A stretch of 64,000 nt of DNA from NCBI GenBank assembly GCA_965140415.1, contig OZ223209.1:2720001-2784000 (forward strand). The letters run 5' to 3'. Of this stretch, positions 4,153 through 61,996 are shown piece after piece. Position numbers and translations under genes: made by a program. The DNA comes from Myxococcota bacterium. Its GTDB lineage: Bacteria > Myxococcota_A > SURF-8. Below the pieces are notes generated by a model. That model made no database searches, was not told the DNA's origin, and saw only the letters and a list, made by a program, of their open reading frames with translations. Within the stretch, counting starts at the first letter, position 1. The number at the start of each line of letters is the position of its first letter.

Positions 4153-4168
4153 AGCAGCATTCGTGCCA
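4153..4168 (-). promoter_or_regulatory. Putative sigma-54 -24/-12 promoter for xis-int
   Basis: Minus strand TGGCAC-GAATG-CTGCT; TTGGAAAG repeats at 4239 and 4260. Confidence 0.65.
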
Positions 4169-4325
4169 TAACCGCAACTAGCCGGAATGACACATGTTGT
4201 GGCATTGTTACTAGGTCTGGGGATTGCAGAATTCACGATTGGAAAGAATTCAATGCCATTTGGAAAGGATAATATCGAGAAAAGGACATCGCCCTTAGCT
4301 GGAGAGTGCTATCTGCTTGTAATAG

Positions 4326-6104
4326 TTACTCAACTGACTGTTTTGAACTCTTCCATGTTGAGTATTTTGCTTCAGTTTCTCCAGCAATCTCTGCAACTCT
4401 TGCTCCGAAGCCAGCATTTGGAGCCCAACCTTCCTGTTCCGCAATCTGTTCGGCGATCATCCATAAATAGCGCTCTATCTCCTCTTTTTCGAGAGAGCTC
4501 AAATATGATTTTAATTTTTCTTCGATTTCCAGATTCTCAACATGTATGGTTTTATTATGAGTCTTATTGACAGCTCCCATAATTGTAGTCTCTAGCTTTC
4601 CTACATTCCCCGTCCAATCATTGAGAAGCAGAGCCAAGCGAGCTTCTTTTTCTATTCTATCTACGCCCGTATTAACCAAAAACGATTTGGCAAGAGGCAT
4701 AATATCCCCCTTGCGTTCTCTTAATGGTGGAATTTCAATCTTGCATTGAATTCGTCGCTTAAGATCGTGCAAAATCTTACCGTTTTGTACAAGTTCCTCA
4801 ATATCCAGGTTACAAGCCATAATTGCCAATACATCCGCTCGGTAAGGATCCAAACCAAGCGGCTCGACTTCCTCCCCATCCATGATCACTTTGAGATGTT
4901 CCTGAATTTCAATCGATGAGTTCTGGAGTTCGTCAATAAACAGCGTCCCTTTATCGGCCTGCTTCAGCTTGCCGATTTCTGCTTGGTCACCTCTGTTGGG
5001 ATAATCCTTTGCCCTTCCAAGTAATTCTCCTCTCAATAAATTTGCATCTCCCTTGTCACCTTTATCAGCAGCACGAAAGATTACAAATTTGTGCGACCTC
5101 CGGCTCGCGATTAGCTGATGGATCAATCTCGCGACGTAGGTTTTTCCCGTTCCTGTTTCTCCAAGCAGGAGCAGGTTTGTTGGAGGAACGCGAGCATCCA
5201 CAACACTAACAAATATCTCCTTGATAAATTCGTAGAACCCTGGACTGTTGCCTACCAACTCCTTTCCCCATTTGCTTTCAGAAATTCTTTTTTGATAGGC
5301 GGAGAGTTTTTTGGACCAATTCACGTCCGACGTGCATATTTGGTTGAAAATCCTTCCTCGAACGAATTCTGGTAGGGGGTCGGAATAATCTCGGATGACT
5401 GGGCCCAAACAGTTATGATAATACGTTAATATCTCTTCATCTTTATAATCGCAAAAAATCGTGTATCTACCCTTTACCCAATCAATCGCAATGTGATCCA
5501 CCCAGATTTTCCCTTGCTCCTGTTCTTGAGAACAGTATTCATGTTCAATGATAAAGTGATCGCCTTGATCATCATGAAAATAAGTGCTCCTGTCATAATA
5601 ACTGGGAAACGAGAACTTGTTGAGCAGCCTTATTAAGCTTCGAATTTGAAAAGGGGCTAGTTTTCTTTGAGTATCGCTTGAGAACTCTTGACTTTCAGCG
5701 TTGACCTCCGAATTCGCTTTCAACAGCTCTTCTGCTCGATCAAACGCTTCGGGACTGAAGGCGCTGGTCATGAGTGCGAGTTCAACAGGTTTCATATTGG
5801 GTATTTCTTGATAAAAGTGGATTCCACCTTTCTCGTTTATCGAGATCAATAAACATCTAAAACCTTCCGCATGGGCCAACGAGTCCACTCTGTCAAAAAG
5901 CAGACTCAGTGGTTCCGATATGGCTACGGGCAATTTTTCAATGGAAGACAGGATTTGATTTGAGCGCAATGGTTTGGGAAAATGCTCAGAAAGGTTCGGT
6001 AATTCAAGAGAGCTGGATGCTCGCCGGAAAAAGTCTTCCCAGTACTCTACATCAATGTCAGCTAGCCGTTCCCAACTGGCTTTTTGTGACTCCGGCATGA
6101 TCAA
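4326..6104 (-). CDS. Sigma-54-interaction (bEBP-type) AAA+ transcriptional regulator with degenerate GAFTGA loop
   Basis: LLLGETGTGKT Walker A, GTLFIDE Walker B, IEIPPLRERKGDI, WTGNVGKL, C-terminal HTH-like segment; AT-rich. Confidence 0.85.
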   Translation of the reverse strand: MIMPESQKASWERLADIDVEYWEDFFRRASSSLELPNLSEHFPKPLRSNQILSSIEKLPVAISEPLSLLFDRVDSLAHAEGFRCLLISINEKGGIHFYQEIPNMKPVELALMTSAFSPEAFDRAEELLKANSEVNAESQEFSSDTQRKLAPFQIRSLIRLLNKFSFPSYYDRSTYFHDDQGDHFIIEHEYCSQEQEQGKIWVDHIAIDWVKGRYTIFCDYKDEEILTYYHNCLGPVIRDYSDPLPEFVRGRIFNQICTSDVNWSKKLSAYQKRISESKWGKELVGNSPGFYEFIKEIFVSVVDARVPPTNLLLLGETGTGKTYVARLIHQLIASRRSHKFVIFRAADKGDKGDANLLRGELLGRAKDYPNRGDQAEIGKLKQADKGTLFIDELQNSSIEIQEHLKVIMDGEEVEPLGLDPYRADVLAIMACNLDIEELVQNGKILHDLKRRIQCKIEIPPLRERKGDIMPLAKSFLVNTGVDRIEKEARLALLLNDWTGNVGKLETTIMGAVNKTHNKTIHVENLEIEEKLKSYLSSLEKEEIERYLWMIAEQIAEQEGWAPNAGFGARVAEIAGETEAKYSTWKSSKQSVE

Positions 6105-6154
6105 CCCCTTTTCTGAATATAAAGATGCTTTATTTTATAAGAATATCCTTATGT

Positions 6155-6204
6155 TTGGAAAGAAAATAGCGTTACTTAGAAAGGATTTCAAGCGATTTGG
6201 AAAG
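6155..6204. promoter_or_regulatory. Three TT(G/A)GAAAG direct repeats at 21-bp spacing upstream of the AAA+ regulator
   Basis: Copies start at 6155, 6176 and 6197. Confidence 0.6.
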
Positions 6205-6310
6205 CATTTGTCCCAATCTAAATTGGGATTCTTTTAGGCCCCCCCCTAGGCTCGGCCGATCCGACAGCGGCTCAAAACCAGTCCGGAAAGATCCGCCGCG
6301 AATCCGTCCC

Positions 6311-9324: not shown

Positions 9325-9347
9325 ACAAAGTCGAATGGATATGCGAT

Positions 9348-10563: not shown

Positions 10564-12717
10564 CTATGGTAGTTTCCATAAATACAAATTCGGCATCGTA
10601 CCGCCGCCTAAAAGAATCCGTTTTTCTTGATGGTAGGCCAAGGTGTACATGGTGCCTTTCGGTACTTTCCACCAAGAAACCGGTGAGGCAGTTGATAAAT
10701 CCCAGAGCCTAACTCCCCTTTTTTTGCCGGTTTCTGCAAGCAGATTTCCACTGATGAATGTAATGGCAGATACAGGATTGGGATATCCTTCCAATTTTGT
10801 TTTACTCTGCCCCGTCATGGCTTCGTAAATCATTATCTGTCCCGAATCACTTCCCACGGCCACCCATTTTGAATTCGGTGAAAACGCAATGGCGGTCAGC
10901 GACGATTTGTTTTTTATCGTGTGCAATTTCTCCGCACGCGGTCCTCCCCAGATTATCAATCTGCCATCGGAACCGACGGAAGCCAATAGTTCTCCGTCTG
11001 GAGAGAAAGCAAGTTTATTAACAAATCCGCGATGCCCTTTTAAAACGGACAACAAACTTCCATCGGATAAATTCCACAGGCGAATAGTTTCATCCATACT
11101 TCCACTTGCCAGGATTCGGCCATCGGGAGAATAGGCAAGGGAATTTACGTCTCGTTTGTGGCCTTGGAGTTTGAAAATTGTACGTCCATCTTTGATTCTT
11201 GAAATGAGAATGGTTTTATCATAGCCACCGGACGCTATCTGCTTGTCGTTCGGAGAGAAGGCCACGGAAGAGACTGCTCCAAGATGAAAAGGGATATCGA
11301 CACGGATTTCAAAAGTGTCGATGCTGCGAACGTGCACTCCGCCGCGTAAACACAGAACATCGGAATAGTCTGCACAGCCCCCCTCTATAAACAGGTCTCC
11401 GCCGGAAGAAAAATCAAGAGCTTGGATACCACTGTCAAACGTTTTGATTTCGACGGGCTTGAGGTCGGAGAAAGAATCTCCCTGATTCAGTAACTTAAGA
11501 GAATGTTTCTCGTGATCGATACTTTTTAAAAGTTTTTCGGCTTGCAGGCGATGCCGATTTTCGAGATGGAAATCCTCTAAAAAATTGGCGACGCTTTCCC
11601 GCCGCTTGGATGCCGGTACGGCCTCCATTCGAGCGACTTTGTATACCGTACTCCAGGCATCTTCCAGTTTTTCCAGATATTGTTTGTGCTCTTCAGCATC
11701 TTCCTTTTTCTGAATTTCGATTTTCTCTGCATCCTTTAACAGGGCTCCATAGGCTTTCATGTCGGGAGTCCGGTAACCGTTTCCGGCTGAGTTCTCCGGC
11801 CTGGACGCCAATCGAAAAACAATCTGACCCGATCCGTACATAACCCCGAAATCAGGCGTTTGCAGACGATTTCTGGCACCTACATTCTGCTCGGTATACA
11901 TACCGATTTCCTTGAAAGTGACAAAACCGTCACCGTTATAATCCGCATTGCCTTGAAGTGCCTTCACCAGCACGGCCGTGAACAATCCGTCTATAACAGG
12001 TTGATCCTGCATTCCGGCCGTAATCCCGTATACTCCCCGTTTTCTGAGATAGTCTTCGATAAGGCCATCCGCGATTCCGGCCCTCGTCAACAACGTCCCT
12101 GAAAAGCAGGAATCCAGAATCACTAGGACGTGCTTGGCCTGGCAGTGGTTGAGGATCTCCTCTCGAAGTTGATTGACGGAAATATAATTGGAGATATCAC
12201 CGGATTTTCCTTCAACCGGAACGAGATAACCGGCAGCTGTGGCATCCCATTTCGATTTTTTAGTAAATCCGTGTCCAGAGTAGTAGACAACGAAGCGGCC
12301 ATGCCTGTCGGTCTTGGCTGCCATTTTTCTAAGCGTTTGAATAATGCCCTGGAACGTTGCCTGTTTGTTGAACAGTGTATGCACCGTGAAATCATGCTGT
12401 TCAAGCACGGTTACCATTCGTTTTGCGTCAGCAACAGCCTCCCCAAGTCGGCTCCAGCCATGCGAATAGTCATCGATTCCTATAACAAGGGCATGGCTGG
12501 CGGCATACCAGCCGTTAAGTCGTTTGTTACCGCTTTCTCTTACTCCGATACCGCGCTGTCTGATCCCATCGGATTGAGCCAGGTTTGACATCGGTGCGGC
12601 AAGGATCAGTAATCCAAGGCCGATTGAAGCCAACCAGTGAAAACAAATACTCCATCGAAAGGAAATCGCTGGTCCTTCCCCGTGTAAGAATATTTTGATT
12701 TTTGATTGCCGCCCCAT
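10564..12717 (-). CDS. Caspase-like (peptidase C14) protein with C-terminal WD40 repeats
   Basis: HALVIGIDDY, YSGHG (His), LDSCFSG (Cys); repeated GH...LAFSPDG...IRLW units; N-terminal hydrophobic segment. Confidence 0.92.
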   Translation of the reverse strand: MGRQSKIKIFLHGEGPAISFRWSICFHWLASIGLGLLILAAPMSNLAQSDGIRQRGIGVRESGNKRLNGWYAASHALVIGIDDYSHGWSRLGEAVADAKRMVTVLEQHDFTVHTLFNKQATFQGIIQTLRKMAAKTDRHGRFVVYYSGHGFTKKSKWDATAAGYLVPVEGKSGDISNYISVNQLREEILNHCQAKHVLVILDSCFSGTLLTRAGIADGLIEDYLRKRGVYGITAGMQDQPVIDGLFTAVLVKALQGNADYNGDGFVTFKEIGMYTEQNVGARNRLQTPDFGVMYGSGQIVFRLASRPENSAGNGYRTPDMKAYGALLKDAEKIEIQKKEDAEEHKQYLEKLEDAWSTVYKVARMEAVPASKRRESVANFLEDFHLENRHRLQAEKLLKSIDHEKHSLKLLNQGDSFSDLKPVEIKTFDSGIQALDFSSGGDLFIEGGCADYSDVLCLRGGVHVRSIDTFEIRVDIPFHLGAVSSVAFSPNDKQIASGGYDKTILISRIKDGRTIFKLQGHKRDVNSLAYSPDGRILASGSMDETIRLWNLSDGSLLSVLKGHRGFVNKLAFSPDGELLASVGSDGRLIIWGGPRAEKLHTIKNKSSLTAIAFSPNSKWVAVGSDSGQIMIYEAMTGQSKTKLEGYPNPVSAITFISGNLLAETGKKRGVRLWDLSTASPVSWWKVPKGTMYTLAYHQEKRILLGGGTMPNLYLWKLP

Positions 12718-12725
12718 AACGATTC

Positions 12726-14177
12726 TTACCGATGCTTGATCTGGAATTCAAACGCGGCTTGCCCAAGCCCCTCCAACGTTTGTTTTCCCAAGCTATTACT
12801 CGAGGAGGCCGCATTGACCACCATCGTCAGTTTCCGGCGAATGCCTATCCCGCGCGTCAATACAGCGACGGCCTGTTCCTGAGTGCCGGAGCCTGTTTTG
12901 CCGACTTCGTTCAGCGTCGTCTCAATGGCGATGCTCCTATTCGGCTGAACGAAGAAAAGCAAACGCTCGAGACCGGGTTTGTCATCCAGATAAAATTCCC
13001 GACTCTGACCAGTGGGAATCCGTATCCGTCCCTTGACCGGATTCTCCGTTCCTGTCAATTCTGCCGGATAAATCCTCGAAATCATGTTCGAGGAATCCAC
13101 CAGAACAATATAGAGGAAGGATTTTTGCGGGACATTCACCTCAAGGCGAAACCCTTGTCCGCTATTTAGGGAATTACCGCTATTCAGGCTTCTATCACCG
13201 GAAAAAACTCCGAGTTGAATCTGAATCGGCTGACCGTCGTTTTTCGCCTGGATTCCGGCCAATCCCTCTTGATACATCGGGAGATCTGTGTTGTTGATTG
13301 ATTGGTGCGGCATCTCGTTATTGATGTTTACCAGAGTCGCAAAGCGATCGAAAATCATCGCCCTCTTTTTAATGTAAGATTCGGAATCTATCTTTCCTGT
13401 TTTATGCAACATACACAAAATCATCGACTCGCGGAAATAGGCCTCGACGGTGTCTGAAAAATAACGGGTAGCCGGACTGGATTCATCTTTGATGTTCAGT
13501 AAGGTTCTCGCTTCATCTTCGTTATAACTCTTGCCATCGATTTCCAGTTCTCTCCGACATTCAGCCTTCATGGCGGACTTTATTGCTTCAATACTGGCCG
13601 CCGGGTGATCGGGGGGAAGTTCTTTACCGAAAAGTTTGGCAACGCTTTTAGGTACGAGCCTGAGAACAAGGCCGAGATCCCCTTCGACCTCCGTAAAGGA
13701 TCGACCAATGGTAACACCGCTACGCGCATTGATATGACTTAAACTCAAAACATAAAAAGGTTCGATTCGATCCAGATGGCCAGTGATAATTTCGGGAATG
13801 CCATAAGCCGCGCTTATCTCGGCGAGGAAGCCGGAATCGTCACTTCCACATTGTTGACGCTTCTCCGCTACATTGACCACTTTCGCCAGATCATATTCCG
13901 TGACGATTTTTTTATCGGTAGCAGCATCGATTTCAGCGCTAATGCGACTTGAAATGGCGTTCAATTGCTTTGCGTCGATACCGGAATCACCTTCCAGTTT
14001 CATAATGAGGATTTTATCGTTTGAGTTCGAATTTATTTCGGCATATGCTGTTTCAATCATCAATGCAAAAAGCAGCAAAGCGGTGCAGCCGATGGGCAGC
14101 GCCTGAATCAGGCCCGTAAGAACTCTACAACATATAGGTTTCATGTTATAATCCCTTTTTTGCCAGTCAACGTGCAT
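12726..14177 (-). CDS. Secreted protein with TolB-N-like N-terminal region and DUF4384-like C-terminal domain
   Basis: Signal peptide (AYA); GFRLEV...FLYIVLVDS...IYP...IRIP...FYLDDKPGLERL. Confidence 0.7.
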   Translation of the reverse strand: MHVDWQKRDYNMKPICCRVLTGLIQALPIGCTALLLFALMIETAYAEINSNSNDKILIMKLEGDSGIDAKQLNAISSRISAEIDAATDKKIVTEYDLAKVVNVAEKRQQCGSDDSGFLAEISAAYGIPEIITGHLDRIEPFYVLSLSHINARSGVTIGRSFTEVEGDLGLVLRLVPKSVAKLFGKELPPDHPAASIEAIKSAMKAECRRELEIDGKSYNEDEARTLLNIKDESSPATRYFSDTVEAYFRESMILCMLHKTGKIDSESYIKKRAMIFDRFATLVNINNEMPHQSINNTDLPMYQEGLAGIQAKNDGQPIQIQLGVFSGDRSLNSGNSLNSGQGFRLEVNVPQKSFLYIVLVDSSNMISRIYPAELTGTENPVKGRIRIPTGQSREFYLDDKPGLERLLFFVQPNRSIAIETTLNEVGKTGSGTQEQAVAVLTRGIGIRRKLTMVVNAASSSNSLGKQTLEGLGQAAFEFQIKHR

Positions 14178-14406: not shown

Positions 14407-14743
14407 TGATCTTCCCCTCGAAAGAGGGACACCCACAAGTTGGGTGTCATGCGGCGGCCTCCAGTTTGCCTGACCAGTACGCCCGTTCGTAATCGACGGG
14501 GCTCATCTGGCCGCTTTCGCGGACGGCTTTTCTCCAGAGTGACAGGGTGTTGACCGAGATGCCCAATTCTTCCGCGATCACCCGCATGGGTTTGTCCGAT
14601 TCTTCCATCAACCGGACGGTCTGTAACTTGAATTCCCGGTAGTAGCGCTTCGCTTGCGGTGTCATGCTTTCTTCCTCCCTTATATTGAGTAGACATCCTA
14701 ACTTACCCAACTTGTGGGTGTCCACTCTTTCGGGGGAAGATCA
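14407..14743 (-). mobile_element. Internally deleted IS3-family mini-element (337 bp)
   Basis: ~38-bp terminal inverted repeats TGATCTTCCCC...ACCCACAAGTTGGGT; ORF joins the OrfA HTH (KRYYREFKLQTV...LGISVNTLSLWRK) to an OrfB-like C-terminus (MSPVDYE...AA*). Confidence 0.85.
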
Positions 14744-15390
14744 GAATCGTTGCTGCGAGAGCTTCTCACGGGCGAGTACATCGGGAAACGGGAAAACGTG
14801 TTGCTGATGGGCAACAGCGGCACGGGAAAAACGCATCTGGCGACGGCCTTGGGCTTTGCAGCCTGCGCCCAGGGGAAGAAGGTCCGCTTCTTCACTCTCA
14901 CCAATTTGGTCACCGAGTTACTTGAAAAGCGGGAGGACCGGCAGCTGAAACGCTTTCTGATCCAGCTTGAAAAGCAGCATCTGTTGATTCTGGATGAGCT
15001 GTGTTACGTGCCGTTTTCGAAAGCGGGAGCGGAACTTTTATTTGAAGTCATCAGCCGAGCCTACGAGCGTCAGAGCGTGATGGTGACAACGAATCTCTCC
15101 TTCGAAAACTGGGTGGAGATCCTCGAAATGAACGCTTGACAGGAGCCCTGCTGGATCGGCTGACCCATCGGGTCCACATCCTGGAGGCCAATGGTGAAAG
15201 TTTCAGGCTGAAAGAGGCGAAACGGCGAAAAAAAACGAACCAACGACAGGAAGAAGAAAGGAGACGATAGAAGCTAAAAAACGGAAGCCAAAAACCAAGG
15301 ATTGACTTCCCGCTCATGGCGGGATATTTTTGAACCCGGCTGCCGCACTTTTCGACCGATACCCGCCGCACTTTTTAAAAGAGATTTACA
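14744..15390 (+). pseudogene. istB: IS21-family istB fragment (5' truncated, frameshift near 15125) and IS21 right end
   Basis: GNSGTGKTHLA, LILDEL, TTNL; ALLDRLTHRVHILEANGESFRL continues in another frame; repeated GCCGCACTTTT boxes ending ...TACA at 15390. Confidence 0.85.
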
Positions 15391-16456: not shown

Positions 16457-16476
16457 TCGGGTTCCTTTCCGTCAGG

Positions 16477-51261: not shown

Positions 51262-51963
51262 TCAGACCGAAAGAGAAAGCTTCGCCGTCTGAGCCAGTTC
51301 GCGGCCAAGCGCCTTCAGGCGATGATGGGCTCGGCTGACGCTCATCCCGACCGCCTTTCCGCACTCCTGGAAACTGCCTCCGGCCAGGCGCGCCGCCAGC
51401 AAGCGGCGATCTTGCTCGGTCTGCTCGTCAAGCCAGGCTTCCAGGTCGAAGGCGCTGACGAGCTGGTCCTCCACGTCGCGGGTCGCCGCGTAGGAGACGG
51501 CGTCAACGAAGCTCATGGGATTGTCGCGGGTCAGATCGTTGTCGGCATAGGGACCGGGCTCCACGTCGGGCAAACCGTCGAAGCGCAGAACTTGGATGCC
51601 GTCCCACAGACAGGCCATTGCGCCCATGACATCCCGGCGACGGCGACGACCGGGGACGAAGCAGTGGGACGGATCGAAAGCCTTGAGTCGCAGGCCATGA
51701 ACGAGCGCCCCGCGGTCGGTGGAATGACCTTTCATCGCCGCGGAATAATAATCGCGCCAGATCAGGCACAGGGCTTCCTGGAATCGGTCTTCCGCATCGT
51801 GCGCGTCGTCCAAGTGGCGCATGACCGGATTGAAGATGTCATCGGCGATCATGTCGCTGAAATTCGCGTTGATCGCTTCGTGGGAAAGGGGAAGAGGTGA
51901 ATTCAATTGAAGGGGATGATGGGGGTGATCGGGTTGGGAATCGGTTTGCATACAGTTTTCCAT
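51262..51963 (-). CDS. Sigma-70/ECF-like factor or region-4 HTH regulator
   Basis: AEDRFQEALCLIW (region 2-like); DLEAWLD...DRRLL...GGSFQECGKAVGMSVSRAHHRL (region 4-like). Confidence 0.65.
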   Translation of the reverse strand: MENCMQTDSQPDHPHHPLQLNSPLPLSHEAINANFSDMIADDIFNPVMRHLDDAHDAEDRFQEALCLIWRDYYSAAMKGHSTDRGALVHGLRLKAFDPSHCFVPGRRRRRDVMGAMACLWDGIQVLRFDGLPDVEPGPYADNDLTRDNPMSFVDAVSYAATRDVEDQLVSAFDLEAWLDEQTEQDRRLLAARLAGGSFQECGKAVGMSVSRAHHRLKALGRELAQTAKLSLSV

Positions 51964-52598
51964 GATTCGGACCTCCTGGTCGTGTTCAACGCGCACGAAG
52001 GCCGTTACCACCGGCCCACGCGCAGCGTCGCCGCCTTGCGGGCGGTGGGGTTGATTGGGGCGGGAAACATATCCCGCCGATCCTTGATTTATGGGTACGC
52101 GCCGTGAAAATCAGCGCGGGTTTGAGCTATAAGACTTGTGTCAAAACTTGGTGCTGGCCGTTCGGGCGGACGCGAATCGTCCGGACGTCGTGGATCCGCG
52201 CTCGCGAGGCTGGTTGGGAAATATGAGACGAGCCGGATATCAGATTCGTCACTGTTTTCTTATAGTAAAATCCAGACGGAACTTGCATTTCCAGGTCTGC
52301 TGAGCCCGTTTCATCGGAAAAATCGTCCCCAAAAATATTTGAAAGGCCGTTTTTTTCAATGGATTTGATTTTTCTCTGGAGTGAAAATAGAAAAATATGG
52401 CCGTCGTTCTAACGAAAGGGCTGATCGAAGGAATATGGAGCGTTGTTTGGCTTATGAATACCGACAAGGCGGGTGTCGCAATTGTCGGTGCTTGGGTCCG
52501 AACGGACCTGATTGTGAGCAGGGGGTGGGTCCCCTATGGGGCTGGAATTGAAATCTCCGTAGGGCTAGGGGAATACGAGTCGGTATCCTCTACCGGGT

Positions 52599-53208: not shown

Positions 53209-53643
53209 TTATTCGAACAGGTTCCGCAGGCTACCCTTAGATGGCCGGTCCCAGTTGGCGAACCAGAGCGGTTTGAGCGGCTCGCCGTTCTCATCCCTGG
53301 AGGTATTCATGGCCAGCGGGACCATCTTCATGTACGACCCTTCGCGCACTAGATCATATCCATTTCTGCGGCACTCTTCGCGTGCGACCCGAGTGACCCA
53401 TGATCCCCGTTTGTCGTCCAGCAGGGCGTAGTAGCCGCCAGCGTTCCATTTCCGAACCCATTCGCGGACCGACGCGGTCGAGCAGTTCGATTCCTTCGCG
53501 GAAGATTGTTGGGATTTGCCCTCCATCAACATGTGGATAGCGCGCAAGCGAAGTTGGAGCCGGTCATCTGATTCCCGGTCTATCATAGACTGGAGCTGTG
53601 CAGGACTGAACAGTGTCTGATCCGGTCGTTTCAGCGTCGGCAT
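53209..53643 (-). CDS. Transposase-type (IS630-like) HTH protein without catalytic domain
   Basis: RLRAIHMLMEGKS...VREWVRKWNAGGYYALLDDKRG. Confidence 0.7.
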   Translation of the reverse strand: MPTLKRPDQTLFSPAQLQSMIDRESDDRLQLRLRAIHMLMEGKSQQSSAKESNCSTASVREWVRKWNAGGYYALLDDKRGSWVTRVAREECRRNGYDLVREGSYMKMVPLAMNTSRDENGEPLKPLWFANWDRPSKGSLRNLFE

Positions 53644-54170
53644 GGGGTAACCCCTATCGCACGGTTCAGTTTCGCAATCGAGTCCTCCAGCTCCTGCCAC
53701 TGTTCATTTTTCGCCGTCCGGCAAACTGCAGGTGAAATAGCGAGGGGGACTGCGCGAGGTTTGCAGTCTCCCAGTAGAACATCCATGCCGTGATCGCGAA
53801 GGTATTTCCGCTGTGGAGGGAAGATCGGATCTTTGCCGGTCGGAGTGCGGAGCAGGAATAACCCCTCGTAGCTGCCCACGTTCCAGAATCGTGTCCATAG
53901 GACCAGTTCTTCACCGCTGATATCCTGTCGCTCAAGAATCCAGCGCCAGGACCGGCCAAGCATCAACGCTCGTATAGTGCGCAATCTGCGGACAGGTTCC
54001 TCTTCTTTGCCTTCCCGGATGAAGTACTCGATCTGCTCAACATCTTCCTGCAAGGCCCCTTTCGGCAGAAAGGTCGGATTTCTCTCCATCGGAATTCTCA
54101 TCAGTTCCAGGATGTACGACCTTACCCGATCAGCATAGACCCCATTATTTCTATTCGTCATCTTCTGCAC
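53631..54170 (-). CDS. Transposase-type HTH protein
   Basis: RRLRTIRALMLGRS...WTRFWNVGSYEGL...TGKDPIF. Confidence 0.6.
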   Translation of the reverse strand: MQKMTNRNNGVYADRVRSYILELMRIPMERNPTFLPKGALQEDVEQIEYFIREGKEEEPVRRLRTIRALMLGRSWRWILERQDISGEELVLWTRFWNVGSYEGLFLLRTPTGKDPIFPPQRKYLRDHGMDVLLGDCKPRAVPLAISPAVCRTAKNEQWQELEDSIAKLNRAIGVTPCRR

Positions 54171-54423
54171 CTCGTTTCTGGCGCAATCCCGCAGCTTCCA
54201 TCACACTGGATGGGCCGAACCTTTTGTCGATCAGTCCGCTTTCGTTTCCCGCAAGGAACTGCTGCCGCCACCGGTATGCACTGCTGCGGCTGATGTTTAG
54301 TATCCGCGCCGCCGTTGCTACCGGTTCTCTGCGGCCAACGACGGCATGCAGAAACAGAGTCCGCAGCCAAAGCTGACGCTCGGGCTGAAAGACGAAAGGA
54401 TCAATGGGCATTGTGTCGAACAT
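54151..54423 (-). CDS. Transposase-type HTH protein
   Basis: VATAARILNISRSSAYRWRQQFLAGNESGLIDKRFGP. Confidence 0.7.
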   Translation of the reverse strand: MFDTMPIDPFVFQPERQLWLRTLFLHAVVGRREPVATAARILNISRSSAYRWRQQFLAGNESGLIDKRFGPSSVMEAAGLRQKRGAEDDE

Positions 54424-54632
54424 CGCCAGTCTTCCTTGGACGGTTAGGATTCAGGAATCGCGGATTCACCATAGAATTCAGGTGGTCCGGTGAATCCGTG
54501 AGTCCCAACCATTGTTTTTAGGATACACCAAGCAAGAGTTATAAGTCAAGACTACTAAATGATTAGATACTATTCACTGGACGGAACAAGCTCCTGTACG
54601 TACAATGCTGCGATATGCTTTCGGGAGGTGAC

Positions 54633-55625
54633 ATGCCCAGACCAAAGCTCGACCCCAAACAACGACTGCGCCTGCGCGCACTCAAGCGCGCGGAAAAGGT
54701 CGGCATGACCGCTGCGGCAAAGGAGTCCGGGATATCGCGCGTCATGCTGCACCGGTGGCGCGATCGGTTCGAGGCCGATGGAGTCGAGGGATTGCGCGAC
54801 CGTTCTCATCGTCCGCACCGTACACGGGCCACATCACCGGAGGTGGCTGAGCAGGTGATTCGGACTGCGCTTCAGCATCCCACCCATGGTTGCCGCAAAA
54901 TCGTCGGCGCGCTAGCCGAGCGGGGCATTTCTCTGAGCGAGCCGACCGTTCAGGGCATTCTGGTCGATCGGGAACTCGGCCTGGCTGAACAGCGTGTGGG
55001 AATGGTCGAGCGGCGTATCCTCAACGGCGTGTGCAAGCCATCCTCCGAGCTTCTCGCCGAGGTGGAGGCGGCGGATCCTTCGTTTCGTGAACGGGTTCGT
55101 CCAATACCTCGACCGGGCAGCCTTCTCATATCCGACATCCTTCGCGCAGGCATCACTGAGGACGGGAGACGGCTGCAGGTCGTAGTGGTAGTGGACGCCG
55201 GGAGTGCTTGCGCCTGGGCAATGCCGTTCACGGACATCGGGCACCTGCCGCACATCGAGATCTTGCGCAGTCAGGTTATGCCGGATCTTGAGGAATGGGG
55301 GGCTAAGCCCTTTAGCATACTCACCCCGAATCGCGCGCCATGGACCAAGGATAGTCCGGAAGGACGGGCATTCAGGATGTGGTGCCGCGAGGGATTCCAC
55401 CTACGGCAGAAGTTTCAGCCGGAGGGAGTACAGAACGGGTACATTGAGTCGTTCAAGCGCGAATTTCAATCCTGGTTCCGCGGGGAGGGACTGCACGGCG
55501 CGCCGATAATGAAGATCGAGCAGGCTCTGGGAAAATGGCTGAGTGTGCAGAACCGGCAGGCGAGGGGGACATACCCCTGCTTCGGCCGAACGCCTCTTGA
55601 GACGATCCGGCCGAAGCAAGGGTGA
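54633..55625 (+). CDS. IS481-like transposase homologue with degenerate catalytic core
   Basis: HTH GISRVMLHRWRDRFEADGVEGLRDRSHRP; PRPGSLLISD, ILTPNR (TDNG position), QNGYIESF, GRTP. Confidence 0.75.
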   Translation: MPRPKLDPKQRLRLRALKRAEKVGMTAAAKESGISRVMLHRWRDRFEADGVEGLRDRSHRPHRTRATSPEVAEQVIRTALQHPTHGCRKIVGALAERGISLSEPTVQGILVDRELGLAEQRVGMVERRILNGVCKPSSELLAEVEAADPSFRERVRPIPRPGSLLISDILRAGITEDGRRLQVVVVVDAGSACAWAMPFTDIGHLPHIEILRSQVMPDLEEWGAKPFSILTPNRAPWTKDSPEGRAFRMWCREGFHLRQKFQPEGVQNGYIESFKREFQSWFRGEGLHGAPIMKIEQALGKWLSVQNRQARGTYPCFGRTPLETIRPKQG

Positions 55626-55643
55626 CTAGGAACACCATAGTAA

Positions 55644-56153
55644 CTACTTGAACTCCGATCGGATAGCATGAGGGGTGTCGCTGAGCTCATTGTCAATCCA
55701 ATCCTTCAGGTAGTTCTTTTGGCCCGCCACAAGATCGCTGATAGCTTTCACTCCGGTCCTGTGGGTCTCCGCCATCTTATCAAACCAGATCGAGTCATAG
55801 AGACCGTAATCCGTTTGGAGAGTCTCCTCCACCATCTTTTTAAGAACGGATGGAAAAGCCTTCAATATCTGCCAATTCGTGACACCCCACCGAATCAAGA
55901 TGAAGTCATCTTCTGCGTATACCTTTACCAGTGCCTCAATGTCGTCTGCCAGGTTGTAAAGCCTATTCCAATGCAGTTGAACAGCCTCCCCAATTACATC
56001 ATTAGCGAGTGATTGCTCAAGATCGCGCGCATGATCGACTACCCAGCGGAATTCACCGATTTGCCGTTCTACTTTAACAAATCTCGCCTCCAAGTCTTCT
56101 ACTTTATCGAGCAGAAGAAATAAAAACGTACCATACTCGTGACGATCCATCAT
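55644..56153 (-). CDS. Hypothetical protein
   Basis: 169 aa, AAGGAG RBS, last gene of the polymerase operon. Confidence 0.65.
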   Translation of the reverse strand: MMDRHEYGTFLFLLLDKVEDLEARFVKVERQIGEFRWVVDHARDLEQSLANDVIGEAVQLHWNRLYNLADDIEALVKVYAEDDFILIRWGVTNWQILKAFPSVLKKMVEETLQTDYGLYDSIWFDKMAETHRTGVKAISDLVAGQKNYLKDWIDNELSDTPHAIRSEFK

Positions 56154-56170
56154 GTTCTCCTTGCCTCCTT

Positions 56171-56611
56171 TTAATCCTCATTGTTATTGGGTTTAGGACA
56201 ATCCAGGATCATCACCACAGGAGCCTCGTTTGTCCCCTCATTCAGTCGCTCAATCAGCCCGGCTTTCTTCAGAGCCTTGAGCGCGCGAGATTTGCTACTG
56301 CTGGAGAGATTCATCTCCTCCAACACACGGTGGTTCGAGAGTTTGACGACTGCGGTGCCATCTCGCAGCCCTCCCAAGTGCCAGAGCATTATGCCGACGG
56401 CTAGAGCCTTTCCGGGACAATGTGCCGCACGTGATATCCAATCCCATGGTATTGGCCCCAAAAGGAAATATTCACGGCTGCTCCGATCATGTCGTGGTAG
56501 AGGATGGTCAATCGCATTCTGGGACTTCGGTTTTCCCGACTTTGTCCGTGGAGTCTTTTTCGCGTTGACGAGTTGGTTAAAGATCTTCTGCTTTTTATCA
56601 CTGGGACACAT
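56171..56611 (-). CDS. Winged-helix DNA-binding protein
   Basis: FLLGPIPWDWISRA...KALAVG...LSSSSKSRALKALKKAGLI. Confidence 0.65.
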   Translation of the reverse strand: MCPSDKKQKIFNQLVNAKKTPRTKSGKPKSQNAIDHPLPRHDRSSREYFLLGPIPWDWISRAAHCPGKALAVGIMLWHLGGLRDGTAVVKLSNHRVLEEMNLSSSSKSRALKALKKAGLIERLNEGTNEAPVVMILDCPKPNNNED

Positions 56612-56882
56612 TTTTCCCTCCCCCCTCGCGCTCCCCCCTCTGGCAGGAGGAGACCCCGAGGCAACCTCCGGTTGGACCGAGGCGCAAAACGGGCACCTCC
56701 CTCCGGTCGATTTGCGCAAAATCCTGCAAGCCATTGGGGTGCCTCATAGGCCCTGTCGATACATGGCCTATACGACTACCCCAACTAGACAGTGATAAGA
56801 TGGACCTGGGGTTCGGTACTGCAACGCCAGGGTTGCAGGGTCGGGACACAGCGTCCCGCATTTGCACAGGTTGATGTTTCAT
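56598..56882 (-). CDS. Possible small hypothetical protein
   Basis: ATGA overlap with the polymerase stop; AAGGAG RBS. Confidence 0.35.
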   Translation of the reverse strand: MKHQPVQMRDAVSRPCNPGVAVPNPRSILSLSSWGSRIGHVSTGPMRHPNGLQDFAQIDRREVPVLRLGPTGGCLGVSSCQRGEREGGGKNVSQ

Positions 56883-58555
56883 GGTTGAACGACTCCTTTC
56901 TCGATTGTTGATGTGAAATTTGACCAGAGCTCTCCACCGACGTCGGAGGCATAGTGGTTGGGGCCATCCACCTGCCACTCGATCTCGGCATCAAGCGCAA
57001 AACCCTCCAGGACCATCCCGGAGGCATCTCTCATAGCCTGTTGGGTGGTTTTTACAATCTCGTTGATCTCATTCGTCGGACCCTGGATCAGCAGGGCGTC
57101 GTGGACCGGCAGCAGTACCTGGACCCCGCGCTCCATCGCCAGCATATGGGCGAGGCGGATCATCTCAGCGCCAGTGGACTGCTGCATCCAGTTCCGGATG
57201 GATTCGATGCTGGTGGTCGGAGTGACGGCAACCTTCCAGCCGAAGCGGGTCTTCATCTGTCGATCTAACAGGGCCTGGTTGACAATGTCATTCGACCAGC
57301 GGTGATAGATGTGGAACGTCTCCTCAAACTGGCGGCGGATCTCGCGAGCATAAGCGGGTGGTGTGTTCGTGTAGGCTGCGAGTTTTATGTTGCCCATCCC
57401 ATAACCAAGTGCGAGCGAGGCCAGCTTGTAACGGTTGCGCTCAGACCTGTGGGTCTTTTTCGTCGCATTGTCCGGCACGGCCCCACAGCGCCGGGCGAAG
57501 CCAATATAGAAATCCCCGTCCTGATAGGCTGCGATCATTTCCGTATCACCGGATAGCACCGCACCGATCCCGATTTCCTGGGTGCGGTAGTCAATGTAGA
57601 CCAGCGACCAACCCGTAGGAGGCTGTATCAGATGCCGGAACACCTTCGGGTACCCCATGACACAAGCCGCCGTACTGAACTGCGTCCGGCCTGTGACCGA
57701 GCGGAACGGCAACAGTCTGGAGCGATTCCGGCCGTCTTCGCCGATTGTGAGGCCTGTGGAACGCATCTGGTTCAGGGACCAGATAATTTGGTAGACGGGT
57801 TTCATGGCGGGATAAGCCCGGGCCAAGTCCTTCTGCGTGTCCTGTTTTATGATCGGCTTGTGGTTGGAATCGACGGGCCAGCGGACGCCATGTTTGACGG
57901 CATAGCGTAGCAGGGTGTCCACGTTCAGTTCATCATCCACGAAAAGATGCGCAATGGCCGGCTCCTGGCGCATGATGGCGCGTCGAATGCGTTTCCAGTT
58001 GGATTTGATCGCGCGCCATGTGAGCCGGTTCACGGGGATGCCGAGGATCTCGGACTGCGCGGCGGCGAGGACGTATTGGGACCGCAGGAGCGCCTGCCTT
58101 ATCAATAACTGATCGGTCGGCTGGAGGCACCCCAAGAGCTCGATCAAGGCGAGCAGATTCTGGTTTTCCGGACGCGCGCTTTCTGGTGGCCGGATGTTCC
58201 ACACGGTCAGCGCATCGAGGAAGGTTTCGAGGTCATTCCTGTCCACGATACCGTTGGTAAACCGCCGGATTTCTATTTTCAGGTCGAGCAGCTGATCAGG
58301 AATTGGCCAGCCCAGAATGCGGAAGGTCAAAATGACGGGGATAGTATCGTAGGCCACAACCAACGTATCTCTCCCGACGGGAAACGGCGGTTCTGATGCG
58401 CGCCGGAGATCGTTACAGTCGAGATGGATCAACTGACCAGATATCAGATCGTAGGTTTTCAGAGACTGGGGTTTCGGCAACTCCCCAGGGGACTCCACAG
58501 TCTGCACACCAACAGCGACGATATTTCGGTATTTGTTCGCAAGTACGGAGACCAT
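56879..58555 (-). CDS. Family A DNA polymerase (MGE type, no 5'-3' exonuclease domain)
   Basis: SVTGR, motif A YIDYRTQE, motif B RNRYKLASLALGYG, NWMQQSTGAE, motif C PVHDALL. Confidence 0.9.
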   Translation of the reverse strand: MVSVLANKYRNIVAVGVQTVESPGELPKPQSLKTYDLISGQLIHLDCNDLRRASEPPFPVGRDTLVVAYDTIPVILTFRILGWPIPDQLLDLKIEIRRFTNGIVDRNDLETFLDALTVWNIRPPESARPENQNLLALIELLGCLQPTDQLLIRQALLRSQYVLAAAQSEILGIPVNRLTWRAIKSNWKRIRRAIMRQEPAIAHLFVDDELNVDTLLRYAVKHGVRWPVDSNHKPIIKQDTQKDLARAYPAMKPVYQIIWSLNQMRSTGLTIGEDGRNRSRLLPFRSVTGRTQFSTAACVMGYPKVFRHLIQPPTGWSLVYIDYRTQEIGIGAVLSGDTEMIAAYQDGDFYIGFARRCGAVPDNATKKTHRSERNRYKLASLALGYGMGNIKLAAYTNTPPAYAREIRRQFEETFHIYHRWSNDIVNQALLDRQMKTRFGWKVAVTPTTSIESIRNWMQQSTGAEMIRLAHMLAMERGVQVLLPVHDALLIQGPTNEINEIVKTTQQAMRDASGMVLEGFALDAEIEWQVDGPNHYASDVGGELWSNFTSTIEKGVVQP

Positions 58556-58556
58556 T

Positions 58557-59222
58557 TTAGAGCCTCCGTCCGGTCAGCGCAGTCAGAACGTGGTGGTTGG
58601 GCTCGTCGATGTAGTAATCCTGGAAGGCCAGGTTAACGAGTTCCTCGTCGGTTTCCTCAGGCCATTGTGGCTCCTTGTAGTATCCGGCTATCACGATGCC
58701 GCTTTTGACAGAAGAATAATTCAGGATTCGTATCCAGGTCGATTTTGCTTTTTCAATCGCCTGGTCCTGTAGGCGCCAGAACGGCGACCGTTTGCGATCC
58801 TCGGTATTGTAAAGCACTGGCCATAGAAACGCAGCGCCCCATTGGTTGACCGTTACGTGCAGGATGTAGGGCTCAAGTTCAGCCGCCAATTGGTCAAGGT
58901 AGTCATCTGCGACATTGTATATCTCGTTATCTCGCCGCCAGTTCAATAGGGGGAGACCTTTTTTACGTTCCGGATGAACACGAACAAATTCCTGCGGCAA
59001 GGGACGCCGGCAGGCAACTGGTAGGTGAAGCGATTGGGTTGAGTGAAATTGCTGGTGCGTTTCTGCGATTGAACCGGTCTGCGCACGCCTGGCCATCGCG
59101 GCGATATCGGATGGTCTACTGAGTGAAATTCGGTGGGCAGGTCTCTCGACGCGGACACCAGAGGATGTAGGAGTGCGAGAATGTCGATTACGTTCACCTA
59201 TTTTACGAGAATTATTAATCAT
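58557..59222 (-). CDS. Hypothetical protein, possibly ssDNA-binding accessory of the polymerase
   Basis: RRPLPQEFVRVHP...FLWPV...AIEKAKSTWIRI...EPQWP...HHVL; 1 bp from the polymerase start. Confidence 0.6.
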   Translation of the reverse strand: MINNSRKIGERNRHSRTPTSSGVRVERPAHRISLSRPSDIAAMARRAQTGSIAETHQQFHSTQSLHLPVACRRPLPQEFVRVHPERKKGLPLLNWRRDNEIYNVADDYLDQLAAELEPYILHVTVNQWGAAFLWPVLYNTEDRKRSPFWRLQDQAIEKAKSTWIRILNYSSVKSGIVIAGYYKEPQWPEETDEELVNLAFQDYYIDEPNHHVLTALTGRRL

Positions 59223-59252
59223 CTCAATCTCCTTTCATGACCCGGCTGATAA

Positions 59253-59268
59253 AGCATCATGCGTGCCA
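59253..59268 (-). promoter_or_regulatory. Putative sigma-54 promoter for the SSB-like/PolA operon
   Basis: TGGCAC-GCATG-ATGCT; TTGGCAAG and TTGGAAAG at 59340 and 59361. Confidence 0.65.
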
Positions 59269-59414
59269 GGATCGCATCTGTCTGATTTCACGTGGTTTGT
59301 TCTGTTTACGGTCAATCCGGAAATTGCCGTTTTCCGCGTTTGGCAAGAATTGTGGGGGATTTGGAAAGTATCCCACGCCCCATGCACTGGACACGAGGCG
59401 TGGGTGATACCTCG

Positions 59415-61472
59415 TCAGGTAACGAGAAGCTGAAGCGCCGTTTCCGGCTGGACTTCCTCCTCCCGCATGCCGATTGCCTCCAGCGCGCTGCGCTGAATGC
59501 AGATCAGGCGGGCGGGAACGCCCTGCACGCGTACGTTTTTCTCCAGGCGGCGGCGGTCGCCATCGACCGCCAGCCAGTCCCGGTCTCGCCAGCTGCGAAG
59601 GACGGCTTCGGCTTCGTAACCGAGGTGAGAGAGCTCGCGTTTCAGTACATGCGGATAGATGCCCAGATGCGGCCAGGCCTGCTTTTGCCCGTTGAGGCGA
59701 TCCGTATCCCAGCGACCGAGGCAGCCCTTGTTTCCGAACAGCGGCTTGCCCGTGCGATCCGTGCGATGTCGCCCCCAGAACGCCGTTTCATGCCCCTGCG
59801 CCCAGTGGGCGATGTCGCGCAGAGCGTCGGCTGGATCGTTTTTCTCCTCCAAGCTGCCGACGATCTCCGGCCACAAAGTGGCGATGTCCTCTTCGTAGCT
59901 CCAGTCGAGGTCAATCACCTCACGCAACTGGAGCGCCACAAAGTGATGCAACGCGAAAAAAGCCGCGATGCGCTGGGCCAGCGGGTTGTCCTCTGCCTGC
60001 TCGACGTAATCATCGAGAATCGCCTCGTACTGCTCGCGCCAGATTCCCCATGAATCACGGTTCGTCATCACGTAAGAAACAACATTTGGCCCTAGAAAAC
60101 CGTAGTTGCGCTCGACGAGCCGATTGATCTTGCGAACGATCTTGCCAGTTTCATCATTAGCCTCGCCGAACGGGCTGCCCCACATCTGCAGCACCCGACC
60201 GCATGCACCTCCGTCCTTGTTGGAAAACGACGTGATCGGCGCTTCACCGCTGGACAGCAGAACCGTTCGCGATGTCCGAACGGCTTTGGCGCCATGCCAC
60301 GCGCCGCGGGCGCGCCCTCGTCCCGAGTGCACGCGATAGATCATCTTCGAGACTGCAGTTTTCGATCCGGCTTTCTTGGTGTCGTCCAGAATCAACGGCA
60401 CATCCTGTACCGCTCCGATGGCCGCGCCGAAATAGACACTCGTTCCATCCCAGCTGGACACGACCGAATCCGAATCTCGTTCTGTCGGATTGCCCCACAC
60501 GCTGCCGCCGAACTTCAGAGTCGTCGTTTTCCCCGCACTCGTCTCACCGGCGAAATCCACCGTATGGTTTGGCACATCCAAAATGCCGAGGAACGGCGTG
60601 GATGCGGCAACGACCAGCCCCAGCATCACCTTGGGATATGCCGTGGCCAGGCTCACCGCCTCCGTCCACCGCTCATATGATCCACGAGGTTTGAACGCGC
60701 CGGCGATTTGCGCGGTGCCGGGATCGTTGCAGCGGAAAATTGCTTCCCTACGCTCCCAGAACTGAAGGCCTCGCCCCTCCTGGCGGCTGACATCGAGCAC
60801 TTCACCGTCCACCGCAATGGTCGTGCCACCCAGCACAAAACCATGTTCGCCATGCTCTCCATGCATCCCGAGGCGGCTGCTAACATTTACAATGGGTAAC
60901 AGATCCTCGTTGGTGATTTCGAACCGGTGCAGGTATTCGTTCACCTCCGGCAACTTCTGGCGACTGAGCGGCAAGCCGTTATTTGCCTCCTTCATCAGCG
61001 ACGAACTGAAGGCCTCCTTGCGTGGCAGCACCGTTGATTTCCACTCACCGCGCCATTTCCAGACGACCAGCAGGCTGTATTCGCCCAACTCCATGTCGAA
61101 AACGAAGCCGATGACCAGAACTGGATTGGCGGTGATATGCCGAACCACGTAAATACCGCCTTTTTCCTCCAGCCTGTTTATCCCTTTGGGGAAATACGGG
61201 CTCGTCTCAGCCTGGATGAAATACCCGCGCGGCATGGATAGATCCGCCGTCACCGGTGCATCGGGTAGCGGATCCAGGATGCTGTGGCCTGGGCCACTCA
61301 CAATTGCCTGGATCCGGGCGATCACTGCCTCTTCCTGAACCATCACCATCTGACCATGCAGGTCGAGTTCCATCGGCGGATCCGCCTCCATGTTATGGTT
61401 TTCGGGGCTCTCGGACACTTCGGCGGCCTCAACGACCGCCATCTCCGTGCCCACACTCTCTTCGTATTCCAT
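59415..61472 (-). CDS. DUF927-domain replicative helicase-like ATPase (Cch-like)
   Basis: GETSAGKTT Walker A, SVWGNP, PLILDD, GRGRARG, LSSGE, NYG; C-terminal winged-helix-like region. Confidence 0.85.
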   Translation of the reverse strand: MEYEESVGTEMAVVEAAEVSESPENHNMEADPPMELDLHGQMVMVQEEAVIARIQAIVSGPGHSILDPLPDAPVTADLSMPRGYFIQAETSPYFPKGINRLEEKGGIYVVRHITANPVLVIGFVFDMELGEYSLLVVWKWRGEWKSTVLPRKEAFSSSLMKEANNGLPLSRQKLPEVNEYLHRFEITNEDLLPIVNVSSRLGMHGEHGEHGFVLGGTTIAVDGEVLDVSRQEGRGLQFWERREAIFRCNDPGTAQIAGAFKPRGSYERWTEAVSLATAYPKVMLGLVVAASTPFLGILDVPNHTVDFAGETSAGKTTTLKFGGSVWGNPTERDSDSVVSSWDGTSVYFGAAIGAVQDVPLILDDTKKAGSKTAVSKMIYRVHSGRGRARGAWHGAKAVRTSRTVLLSSGEAPITSFSNKDGGACGRVLQMWGSPFGEANDETGKIVRKINRLVERNYGFLGPNVVSYVMTNRDSWGIWREQYEAILDDYVEQAEDNPLAQRIAAFFALHHFVALQLREVIDLDWSYEEDIATLWPEIVGSLEEKNDPADALRDIAHWAQGHETAFWGRHRTDRTGKPLFGNKGCLGRWDTDRLNGQKQAWPHLGIYPHVLKRELSHLGYEAEAVLRSWRDRDWLAVDGDRRRLEKNVRVQGVPARLICIQRSALEAIGMREEEVQPETALQLLVT

Positions 61473-61560
61473 TTTGCTTTTCCTCCTTAGATTATTGGTA
61501 TAATTTGTTCTTCACGACTCCACCGAATATTCAATTGTCAACGAACTGCCATTTCTAGGG

Positions 61561-61576
61561 AGCAAAGACCGCGCCA
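61561..61576 (-). promoter_or_regulatory. Putative sigma-54 promoter for the DUF927 gene
   Basis: TGGCGC-GGTCT-TTGCT; TTGGCAAC and TTGGAAAG at 61654 and 61675. Confidence 0.7.
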
Positions 61577-61996
61577 AAACATCGACGCCGTAACTAGCTG
61601 GAATTACGTGACTATATTGGAATAGAATTACGGATATGGCTTAGGTATGGCGTTTGGCAACGATCCAGACGGATTTGGAAAGAATCCTTGGCTTTGGGGA
61701 AACCATGGGTTATCTGCGTATTGAAGGGGTCGGAAGGTAAAAAAGCTGAAGGCTACTGACTTACCCGCAATGGACAGACAAGAAGTGATGATCGAGCTGG
61801 TCAACTTGTCGCTGTCGCCTAGCGGGCACGTTCTTGGTGATCTGCCAGTCCAGGAGCGTGGGCTACGACGTTTTTAATAACCACGCTGAAACATAGTGGC
61901 AACAGAAGGATCCGTCAAAATGGGTGTAAAAACAGCACGATAGAAGATTCATCTCGTTGCCACTTTGGAAGAGTTGAATATTGGAAGGCGGCGCTC

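Follow-up and report, generated by a model that had tools for sequence, protein, structure and literature searches.

A putative private sigma-54 switch before the recombination and replication genes of an integrative element in a Myxococcota bacterium

Described systems and the element in tRNA-Ala

Sigma-54 promoters require an AAA+ activator and are silent otherwise. The classical systems of this kind, in which the activator is a bacterial enhancer-binding protein (bEBP), are NtrC-glnAp2, PspF-pspA and the plasmid-borne XylR-Pu, and pspF itself carries activator sites over its own sigma-70-type promoter. A related layout was analyzed here in a stretch of 64,000 nt (the window) of a Myxococcota bacterium (assembly GCA_965140415.1, contig OZ223209.1, positions 2,720,001 to 2,784,000), whose genome of 5.98 Mb is one contig. 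The window holds nearly all of one 62.5-kb integrative element inserted in tRNA-Ala, and three -24/-12 promoter matches (P1, P2 and P3) were found on its minus strand before recombination and replication genes of the element, each behind a pair of direct repeats. Judged as sequence features, these promoters and their shared upstream repeats are very probably real regulatory elements, and the bEBP-derived AAA+ protein P0001 of the element is the candidate for their activator.

The element resembles the classical bEBP systems in that its sites lie ~100-130 bp before a TGGCAC-N5-TTGC promoter and in that a PF00158 AAA+ gene stands beside one of the targets; as in pspF, repeats also lie over the putative sigma-70-type promoter of the AAA+ gene itself. 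It differs from them in that the repeats are direct, in that P0001 carries DYPNRG, lacks the PF02954 helix-turn-helix (HTH) and has an orphan 290-aa N-terminal region, and in that the targets are the recombination and replication genes of a mobile element.

The nearest case known to us is the RteB-RteC-excision cascade of CTnDOT, in which RteB is NtrC-like. According to the accessible portion of its description, RteA/RteB act on RteC and this in turn on xis2c-xis2d-exc (PMC3809561); there too, a mobile element's own regulator turns on the excision operon and thereby the rest of the life cycle. Nevertheless, that cascade passes through RteC, and the same portion of the source mentions neither -24/-12 promoters nor shared enhancer repeats (PMC3809561), whereas here one enhancer motif would directly serve both recombination and replication promoters.

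With regard to the replication genes, modules of the staphylococcal cassette chromosome (SCC) type combine a Cch/DUF927 helicase with an A-family polymerase-SSB primase, as stated in the accessible sections of the source (PMC10061031). Like the modules of SCC and of the Staphylococcus aureus pathogenicity islands (SaPI), the integrative element studied here has a DUF927/Cch helicase and a truncated family-A polymerase by a small protein. Its genes run in the order helicase, 221-aa protein and polymerase, as opposed to polymerase, SSB and helicase in the SCC/SaPI modules, and its recombinase is of the tyrosine type instead of the large serine type. The host, unlike those of the SCC/SaPI modules, lies outside Bacillota, and the 221-aa protein is at most a candidate for the OB-fold SSB partner. 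In a full-text search of the literature, no description came up of a mobile element in which a common enhancer and -24/-12 promoters serve the genes of both recombination and replication.

Promoter matches, upstream repeats and their specificity

The consensus of sigma-54 promoters is TGGCACG-N4-TTGCW, and P1 (TGGCACGAATGCTGCT, 4153-4168), P2 (TGGCACGCATGATGCT, 59253-59268) and P3 (TGGCGCGGTCTTTGCT, 61561-61576), all on the minus strand, each differ from it by one mismatch. When the C of the GC doublet was counted as -12, transcription start sites were predicted near 4142, 59242 and 61550, respectively, the second of them shortly before the ATG at 59222. The GG and GC doublets of the three promoters are 10 nt apart, inside the consensus match. 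The pattern TGGCRCN6TGCT matched the window at P1, P2 and P3 exclusively, against a mean of 0.28 matches in shuffled sequences, of which only 1 in 100 gave three or more.

Upstream of each promoter lie two direct repeats with the core (C/G)TT(T/G)CCAA, spaced exactly 21 bp; the conserved unit spans ~15 nt, with a consensus of about ATNCTTTCCAAAYNC. The minus-strand 15-mers are at 4235-4249 and 4256-4270 for P1 (centres near -100 and -121), at 59336-59350 and 59357-59371 for P2 (about -101 and -122, 44 bp past the stop codon of the helicase gene) and at 61650-61664 and 61671-61685 for P3 (about -107 and -128), and the upstream end of the promoter is separated from the proximal repeat by 71, 72 and 78 bp, respectively. 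The pair pattern TTKCCAA-N14-TTKCCAA was found in the window solely at 4239, 59340 and 61654 (minus strand), with 0.02 occurrences expected, and three were reached in 0 of 100 shuffles. The initial annotation had proposed three such -24/-12 matches, before xis-int, an SSB-like/PolA operon and DUF927, together with repeat pairs 21 bp apart starting 71-78 bp upstream, and both proposals were borne out by these counts.

Three further 21-bp-spaced repeats, which had been noted in the same annotation, extend across the putative promoter of the AAA+ gene on the minus strand (6151-6165, 6172-6186 and 6193-6207, with cores at 6155, 6176 and 6197), between its ATG at 6098 and the upstream gene; the middle one (CTTTCTAA) has one mismatch. 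This promoter region contains no -24/-12 match. Weak sigma-70-like hexamers overlap the repeats (TTTCCA-18 nt-TAAAAT and TTGAAA-17 nt-TATTTT), and six sigma-70-like sites were found in the region against 3.4 expected, which is only suggestive of a promoter of the AAA+ gene at this position. A simple scan detected no sigma-70-like promoter upstream of the xis-like gene, the helicase gene or the 221-aa gene. A position weight matrix (PWM) was built from the nine copies themselves, and is therefore circular for those and informative on the absence of others; it found no further site of at least 12 bits within the element.

The three promoter regions could be aligned over about 125 nt. Three-way identity was 12/15 in the distal repeat, 10/15 in the proximal repeat, 10/20 in a 20-mer located between promoter and repeats and 10/16 in the promoter, against 14/123 in the five spacers combined. 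The P1 copy (GTCATTCCGGCTAGTTGCGG, 4172-4191, minus strand) and the P3 copy (61588-61607, minus strand) of this 20-mer, GTMATTCCRGCTAGTTRCGG, are identical at 17 of 20 positions, whereas the P2 version, near 59280-59300, is degenerate. Its spacing is constant to the proximal repeat (54-55 nt) and variable to the promoter (3 vs 11 nt). The P1 copy contains a 13-mer, ATTCCRGCTAGTT, which occurs on the minus strand at 4176 and 61592 and has one extra copy elsewhere in the genome. This 13-mer had been called loosely IHF-like, a description that did not hold, as the P1 and P3 spacers contain no match to the IHF consensus WATCAANNNNTTR with up to two mismatches; the P2 spacer contains two 2-mismatch matches, and the host has seven HU/IHF-family genes. 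The 20-mer may be the site for a second factor.

A fourth -24/-12-like match (TGGCACGACCATTGCG, 60813-60828, minus strand) lies within the DUF927 helicase gene and has no upstream repeats. It is at chance level, with ~0.5 such matches expected per 62 kb.

The specificity of the arrangement was then evaluated in the whole genome. The repeat-pair pattern occurs six times, three of them in the window; the other three pairs have no promoter match in the ~170 nt downstream and look like chance matches. Promoter matches with at most one mismatch number 53 in the genome (12 Mb of both strands), four of them in the element, and the interval 40-250 nt upstream holds no repeat core in 46 cases, one core in four and two in three; those with at least two cores are P1, P2 and P3 exclusively. 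Similarly, 186 PWM hits reach 14 bits, and a -24/-12 match (up to two mismatches) follows within 30-160 nt in just six cases, those at P1-P3; five of the seven PWM pairs 20-22 bp apart, with at least 9 bits each, fall at the four sites described here. The probability of a promoter match with at most one mismatch arising by chance in a 20-nt interval behind each of the three pairs is ~7e-13.

When the composite pattern was searched (a repeat pair, then 60-90 nt, then TGGCRCN6TGC), it was found three times in this genome, always in the element, and never in 400 other genomes of the phylum; a control with the reversed pattern likewise gave 0. The motif pairs thus stood out against both the shuffled and the host background that the initial annotation had named as a check. 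These counts indicate that the regulon is private to the element and stands outside any host bEBP regulon. The host itself appears competent for sigma-54, since it has one complete rpoN gene of 511 aa with AID, CBD and DBD (PF00309, PF04963, PF04552). The layout that had been proposed, an enhancer with a -24/-12 promoter before recombination and replication genes, is accordingly supported by spacing, by element-specificity and by a complete host RpoN.

The AAA+ protein P0001 and competing explanations

P0001 is the sole PF00158 protein within the element (4326-6104, minus strand; 590 aa from the ATG at 6098; 89-93 bits against a cut-off of 20.2). It consists of an orphan N-terminal region of ~290 aa, an intact ATPase core and a C-terminal helical tail, and the Walker A (GETGTGK), Walker B (FIDE) and sensor II (PPLRERKGDI) motifs are kept, as are the L1 and pre-sensor-I insertions. 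Its closest solved relatives are NtrC1 (E 3.6e-26), PspF, ZraR, FleQ and NifA. Foldseek on the AlphaFold2 model (mean predicted local distance difference test, pLDDT, of 71, with a high AAA+ core) returned bEBPs only, with NtrC1, ZraR, PspF and FleQ on top and NtrX among the matches.

Because the element has one bEBP-type AAA+ protein and the repeats mark the promoter region of its own gene, P0001 is the best candidate for the binder, and probably the most economical one. Host RpoN would drive the xis-like gene and int at P1, the DUF927/Cch-type helicase at P3 and the 221-aa/PolA-like operon at P2. P0001 would bind the two repeats, which are predicted to lie on the same helix face at about -100 and -121 to -128 relative to the start, form a ring and spend ATP opening the three closed complexes, and the functions of excision and replication would turn on jointly. 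It would also cap its own level, through binding to the triple repeat at the sigma-70-like promoter of its gene. We infer here the binding of P0001 to the repeats, the engagement of sigma-54 by DYPNRG, the direction of autoregulation and a signal acting at the orphan N-terminal domain. The probability that P0001 is a repeat-binding sigma-54 activator of P1-P3 is placed at about 0.5, given that GAFTGA is missing. Regarding the bEBP-type master switch previously proposed, the bEBP descent and the intact ATPase motifs stood, while a GAFTGA loop and a detectable Fis-type HTH did not; its autoregulation is suggested by the repeats over the promoter region with its weak sigma-70-like hexamers.

Several observations weigh against P0001 as a sigma-54 activator. 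Firstly, P0001 lacks GAFTGA, the L1 motif that defines sigma-54 contact and is regarded in the field as indispensable for it; DYPNRG stands at the position where NtrC1 has GAFTGA in an ungapped alignment. By contrast, a GAFTGA-type loop is kept in all 28 canonical PF00158 proteins of the host (134-248 bits), 25 of them fitting G[AS][FY][TS]G[AG] and the others reading GAFTDA, GAFTDA and GAFSEA. When 1.84 billion representative proteins were searched exhaustively with the first 295 aa of P0001, a single relative was obtained, named P0122 (622 aa, 27% identical over the full length, E 8e-49), whose slightly longer loop, KSGIQNAPKEG, is unrelated to DYPNRG and likewise without GAFTGA. Secondly, Pfam matched no Fis-type HTH (PF02954) in P0001 even at an E value of 10, and a comparison with canonical C-termini by hhalign gave a probability of 0.8%, which leaves DNA binding by P0001 itself as a putative property; moreover, bEBPs usually bind inverted, not direct, repeats. 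Thirdly, the AAA+ gene has a GC content of 43%, compared with 57-60% for the int, xis-like, helicase and PolA-like genes and 52% for the genome, and this outlier suggests an origin separate from that of the other core genes. Finally, no second comparable element for a conservation check was found in the protein, viral, metagenome and related-genome searches, and the GAFTGA-less bEBP relatives named in the accessible portion of a recent preprint regulate sigma-70 promoters (10.1101/2023.06.06.543975).

The search for relatives was extended in several directions. A word-indexed search of 5.8 billion proteins gave matches to P0001 confined to the AAA+ core, with at most 40% identity, and the one match from a scan of genome contigs was an unrelated AAA+ sequence of Pseudomonas. 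In 60 related genomes, the N-terminal domain gave no match beyond a marginal one of 47 aa (E 0.008). P0122 had no further relatives, and its locus was not found in viral or metagenome contigs. The best-conserved stretches between P0001 and P0122 are an N-terminal segment (RCLLISINEKGGIHFY / RRLLTALMQSGEVVFF), which in P0001 falls within residues 1-140, and the last ~45 residues. The full-length model of P0001 has three C-terminal helices (pLDDT 76-91 per 10-residue block), and the C-terminal domain folded alone from the single sequence disagrees with it. That the N-terminal segment or the C-terminal tail binds DNA is a conjecture.

TyrR is a sigma-54-independent bEBP relative. Relatives of this family without GAFTGA include NtrX, the NtrC of Rhodobacter capsulatus and of Caulobacter, and VspR, and both NtrCs and NtrX have deletions in L1, as given in the accessible portion of the preprint (10.1101/2023.06.06.543975). 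P0001 resembles this group in having a bEBP-type AAA+ core without GAFTGA, and NtrX structures are among its Foldseek matches. It departs from the group, as far as that portion describes it (10.1101/2023.06.06.543975), in a loop of canonical length and in linked promoters of the -24/-12 type. As L1 aligned to NtrC1 without a gap, the loop was rewritten and not deleted, which speaks for the activator reading. That P0001 is a true sigma-54 activator by way of a full-length, rewritten L1 (DYPNRG), binding the direct repeats by a non-Fis domain, is advanced tentatively, as a possible but doubtful version of the activator reading.

The explanation that best survives besides activation is that P0001 binds the repeats but is independent of sigma-54, in the manner of NtrX, TyrR, VpsR or the GAFTGA-less NtrCs, and keeps P1-P3 and its own sigma-70 promoter silent, whether by repression, by gating or in an architectural role. 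ATP-driven opening would then fall to one of the 28 canonical bEBPs of the host, working in solution or at sites that escaped recognition. The lack of GAFTGA in both P0001 and P0122 is in agreement with this role, as are the sigma-70 promoters regulated by the relatives named in the accessible portion of the preprint (10.1101/2023.06.06.543975) and the overlap of the repeats with sigma-70-like hexamers at the gene of P0001. Nevertheless, the repeats at P1-P3 stand at enhancer distance (-100, -121 to -128) and off the -24/-12 elements, a poor position for repression; the full-length L1 insertion and the ATPase motifs are retained in P0001; and no host sigma-54 promoter candidate has the repeats, which means that no host bEBP regulon is visibly linked to them. 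A gate of this kind is considered unlikely, though it is the main competitor of the activator reading.

Spacings of 21-22 bp between direct repeats are characteristic of iterons, and SaPI origins lie just 3' of the helicase gene. The repeats could correspondingly be iterons or origin sites bound by another protein of the element, either the helicase, through its C-terminal Cch-type winged helix, or a 187-aa protein with a weak winged HTH (56171-56734); in that case, the 21-bp spacing and an AT-rich stretch by the triple repeat would be signs of an origin. The spacing does fit the iteron pattern, the P2 pair closely follows the 3' end of the helicase gene, the helicase carries the Cch HTH (PF18662) and the 187-aa protein has weak MarR-like matches. 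However, the repeats form four clusters that all share the orientation of the downstream genes, and three of these keep a fixed distance to sigma-54 promoters, as fits transcription control, so that an origin accounts for one site and not for four. In addition, a sigma-54 promoter would still need an AAA+ activator, of which P0001 is the only one in the element. For these reasons, binding by another protein of the element is judged improbable.

A last reading takes the motifs for chance matches or for inert remains of a regulatory cassette that was duplicated in a now decaying island, with other promoters in use. It would suit the insertion sequence (IS) fragments and the much host-like cargo, the likeness of the three regions to copies of one cassette and the 60813 match without repeats that chance predicts, but this is very improbable in view of conservation limited to functional blocks between diverged spacers, of open core genes and att repeats identical across 48 bp, and of the joint chance given above for promoters behind three pairs.

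Genes behind the promoters, contents of the island and meaning

The genes served by P1-P3 are fairly described by the phrase "coupling excision and replication", used in the initial annotation. Behind P1 come a 79-aa xis-like open reading frame (ORF), a hairpin and the integrase, in this order. The xis-like ORF, P0123 (3766-4005, minus strand), lies directly upstream of int and has no Pfam, PHROG or NCBIfam match; we infer from its position and size that it encodes an excisionase. The hairpin is a perfect 18-bp stem-loop between both genes (3699-3736, minus strand; -47.7 kcal/mol, z -6.9) without a U tract, and it belongs to no dispersed repeat family elsewhere. It is possibly an attenuator of read-through from P1 into int, or a processing site.

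P3 precedes the DUF927/Cch-type replicative helicase (59415-61472, minus strand), which matches PF06048 at 98 bits, PF18662 (the C-terminal Cch HTH) and the primase/helicase family phrog_8841 (E 3e-62), as well as the NCBIfam model SCCmec Cch1 at 68.6 bits, under the cut-off. Among 300 other genomes of the phylum, 10 have relatives of it, with 30-39% identity. A -24/-12 match with at most two mismatches is present at 2 of the 14 loci of these relatives, and the composite pattern at none of the 14.

P2 sits just behind the helicase gene. The first gene that follows it encodes the 221-aa protein P0124 (58557-59222, minus strand), which had been labelled SSB-like; no family in Pfam, PHROGs or NCBIfam supports that label. 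One base away is the gene of a family-A DNA polymerase-like protein of 558 aa with the polymerase domain only (56879-58555, minus strand; PF00476 at 80.9 bits, phrog_17, Taq Pol I at E 1e-9), after which the operon continues with two small ORFs.

The limits of the element were defined by its attachment (att) repeats. The tRNA-Ala(GGC) gene was located by ARAGORN at 2356-2431 (plus strand), and its 3' 48 bases constitute attL (2385-2432, plus strand), an exact repeat of which, attR, lies at 64896-64943, 896 bases beyond the end of the window. Short-word BLAST found no third copy within 110 kb. The tyrosine integrase gene lies beside the tRNA (2476-3663, minus strand; PF00589 at 61.9 bits; phrog_1 integrase, E 2.7e-50), and among 14 PF00589 matches in the genome it is the only one between the att copies. 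The 48-bp repeats and the single integrase therefore place both ends in one element, as had been proposed. An empty-site check in kin found the left-flank FHA gene kept in two genomes (G001 and G004), with neither the tRNA nor synteny after it. The DNA contigs of two runs (X1 and X2) are identical to the window across 55363-64000 and thus show no strain variation there, and diverged copies of 55000-55540 occur elsewhere in the same runs. The repeats described above were also considered as arm-type sites of the integrase and were rejected as such, being 1.8-5.6 kb away from the att sites.

The core genes int, xis-like, P0001, helicase and PolA-like are open. The left end carries int, the xis-like gene and the AAA+ gene, and the right end the helicase and PolA-like genes together with Fic and AAA_14. 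The Fic protein (61997-63028, minus strand; PADLOC SoFic model, 163 bits) and the AAA_14 ATPase (63211-64677, plus strand; PDC-S01 match, 97 bits) are candidate anti-phage genes. Between the two ends lie cargo, much of it host-like, and IS debris. The cargo includes PAS histidine kinases, a CheB-CheR fusion, BLUF, a metacaspase-WD40 protein and two ThiF/E1-like genes; the IS debris (14714-15139, 27967-28986 and 53209-55625) comprises a fragment of IstB and DDE transposases, among them an intact one of the IS type, as well as HTH/IS481-like transposase pieces.

The two short ThiF/E1-like proteins (16477-17241 and 35574-36299, both minus strand) match PADLOC E1-E2 models, each by ORFs without family, and a weak ThiS-like match was found at 50058-50873; these genes may be pieces of a ubiquitin-like conjugation system. 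The metacaspase (Peptidase_C14)-WD40 fusion adjoins a DUF4384 protein (10564-14177, minus strand, GC 45-49%). A 249-aa ORF at 51262-52011 (minus strand) gave a weak PHROG sigma-factor match (E 8e-4), and in a by-eye reading its C-terminus resembles region 4 of the sigma-70 family and its N-terminal part region 2. It may be an element-encoded sigma factor of the extracytoplasmic function (ECF) type, ahead of four uncharacterised genes at 47653-51186. A private sigma-54-like factor on the element was likewise considered and rejected, as the genome has a single RpoN DNA-binding domain and the 51262-52011 ORF looks ECF-type.

Being silent without their activator, sigma-54 promoters would give a mobile element a tight switch for excision and replication. 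If the activator reading of P0001 is true, both functions would constitute one ATP-gated, enhancer-dependent decision with essentially no basal leak, and P0001 would be the first natural bEBP to remodel the sigma-54 holoenzyme without GAFTGA. Despite its missing contact motif, P0001 stands in a very clear sigma-54 context, and it would represent either a second route to sigma-54 contact or a disabled bEBP that gates host-driven sigma-54 promoters.

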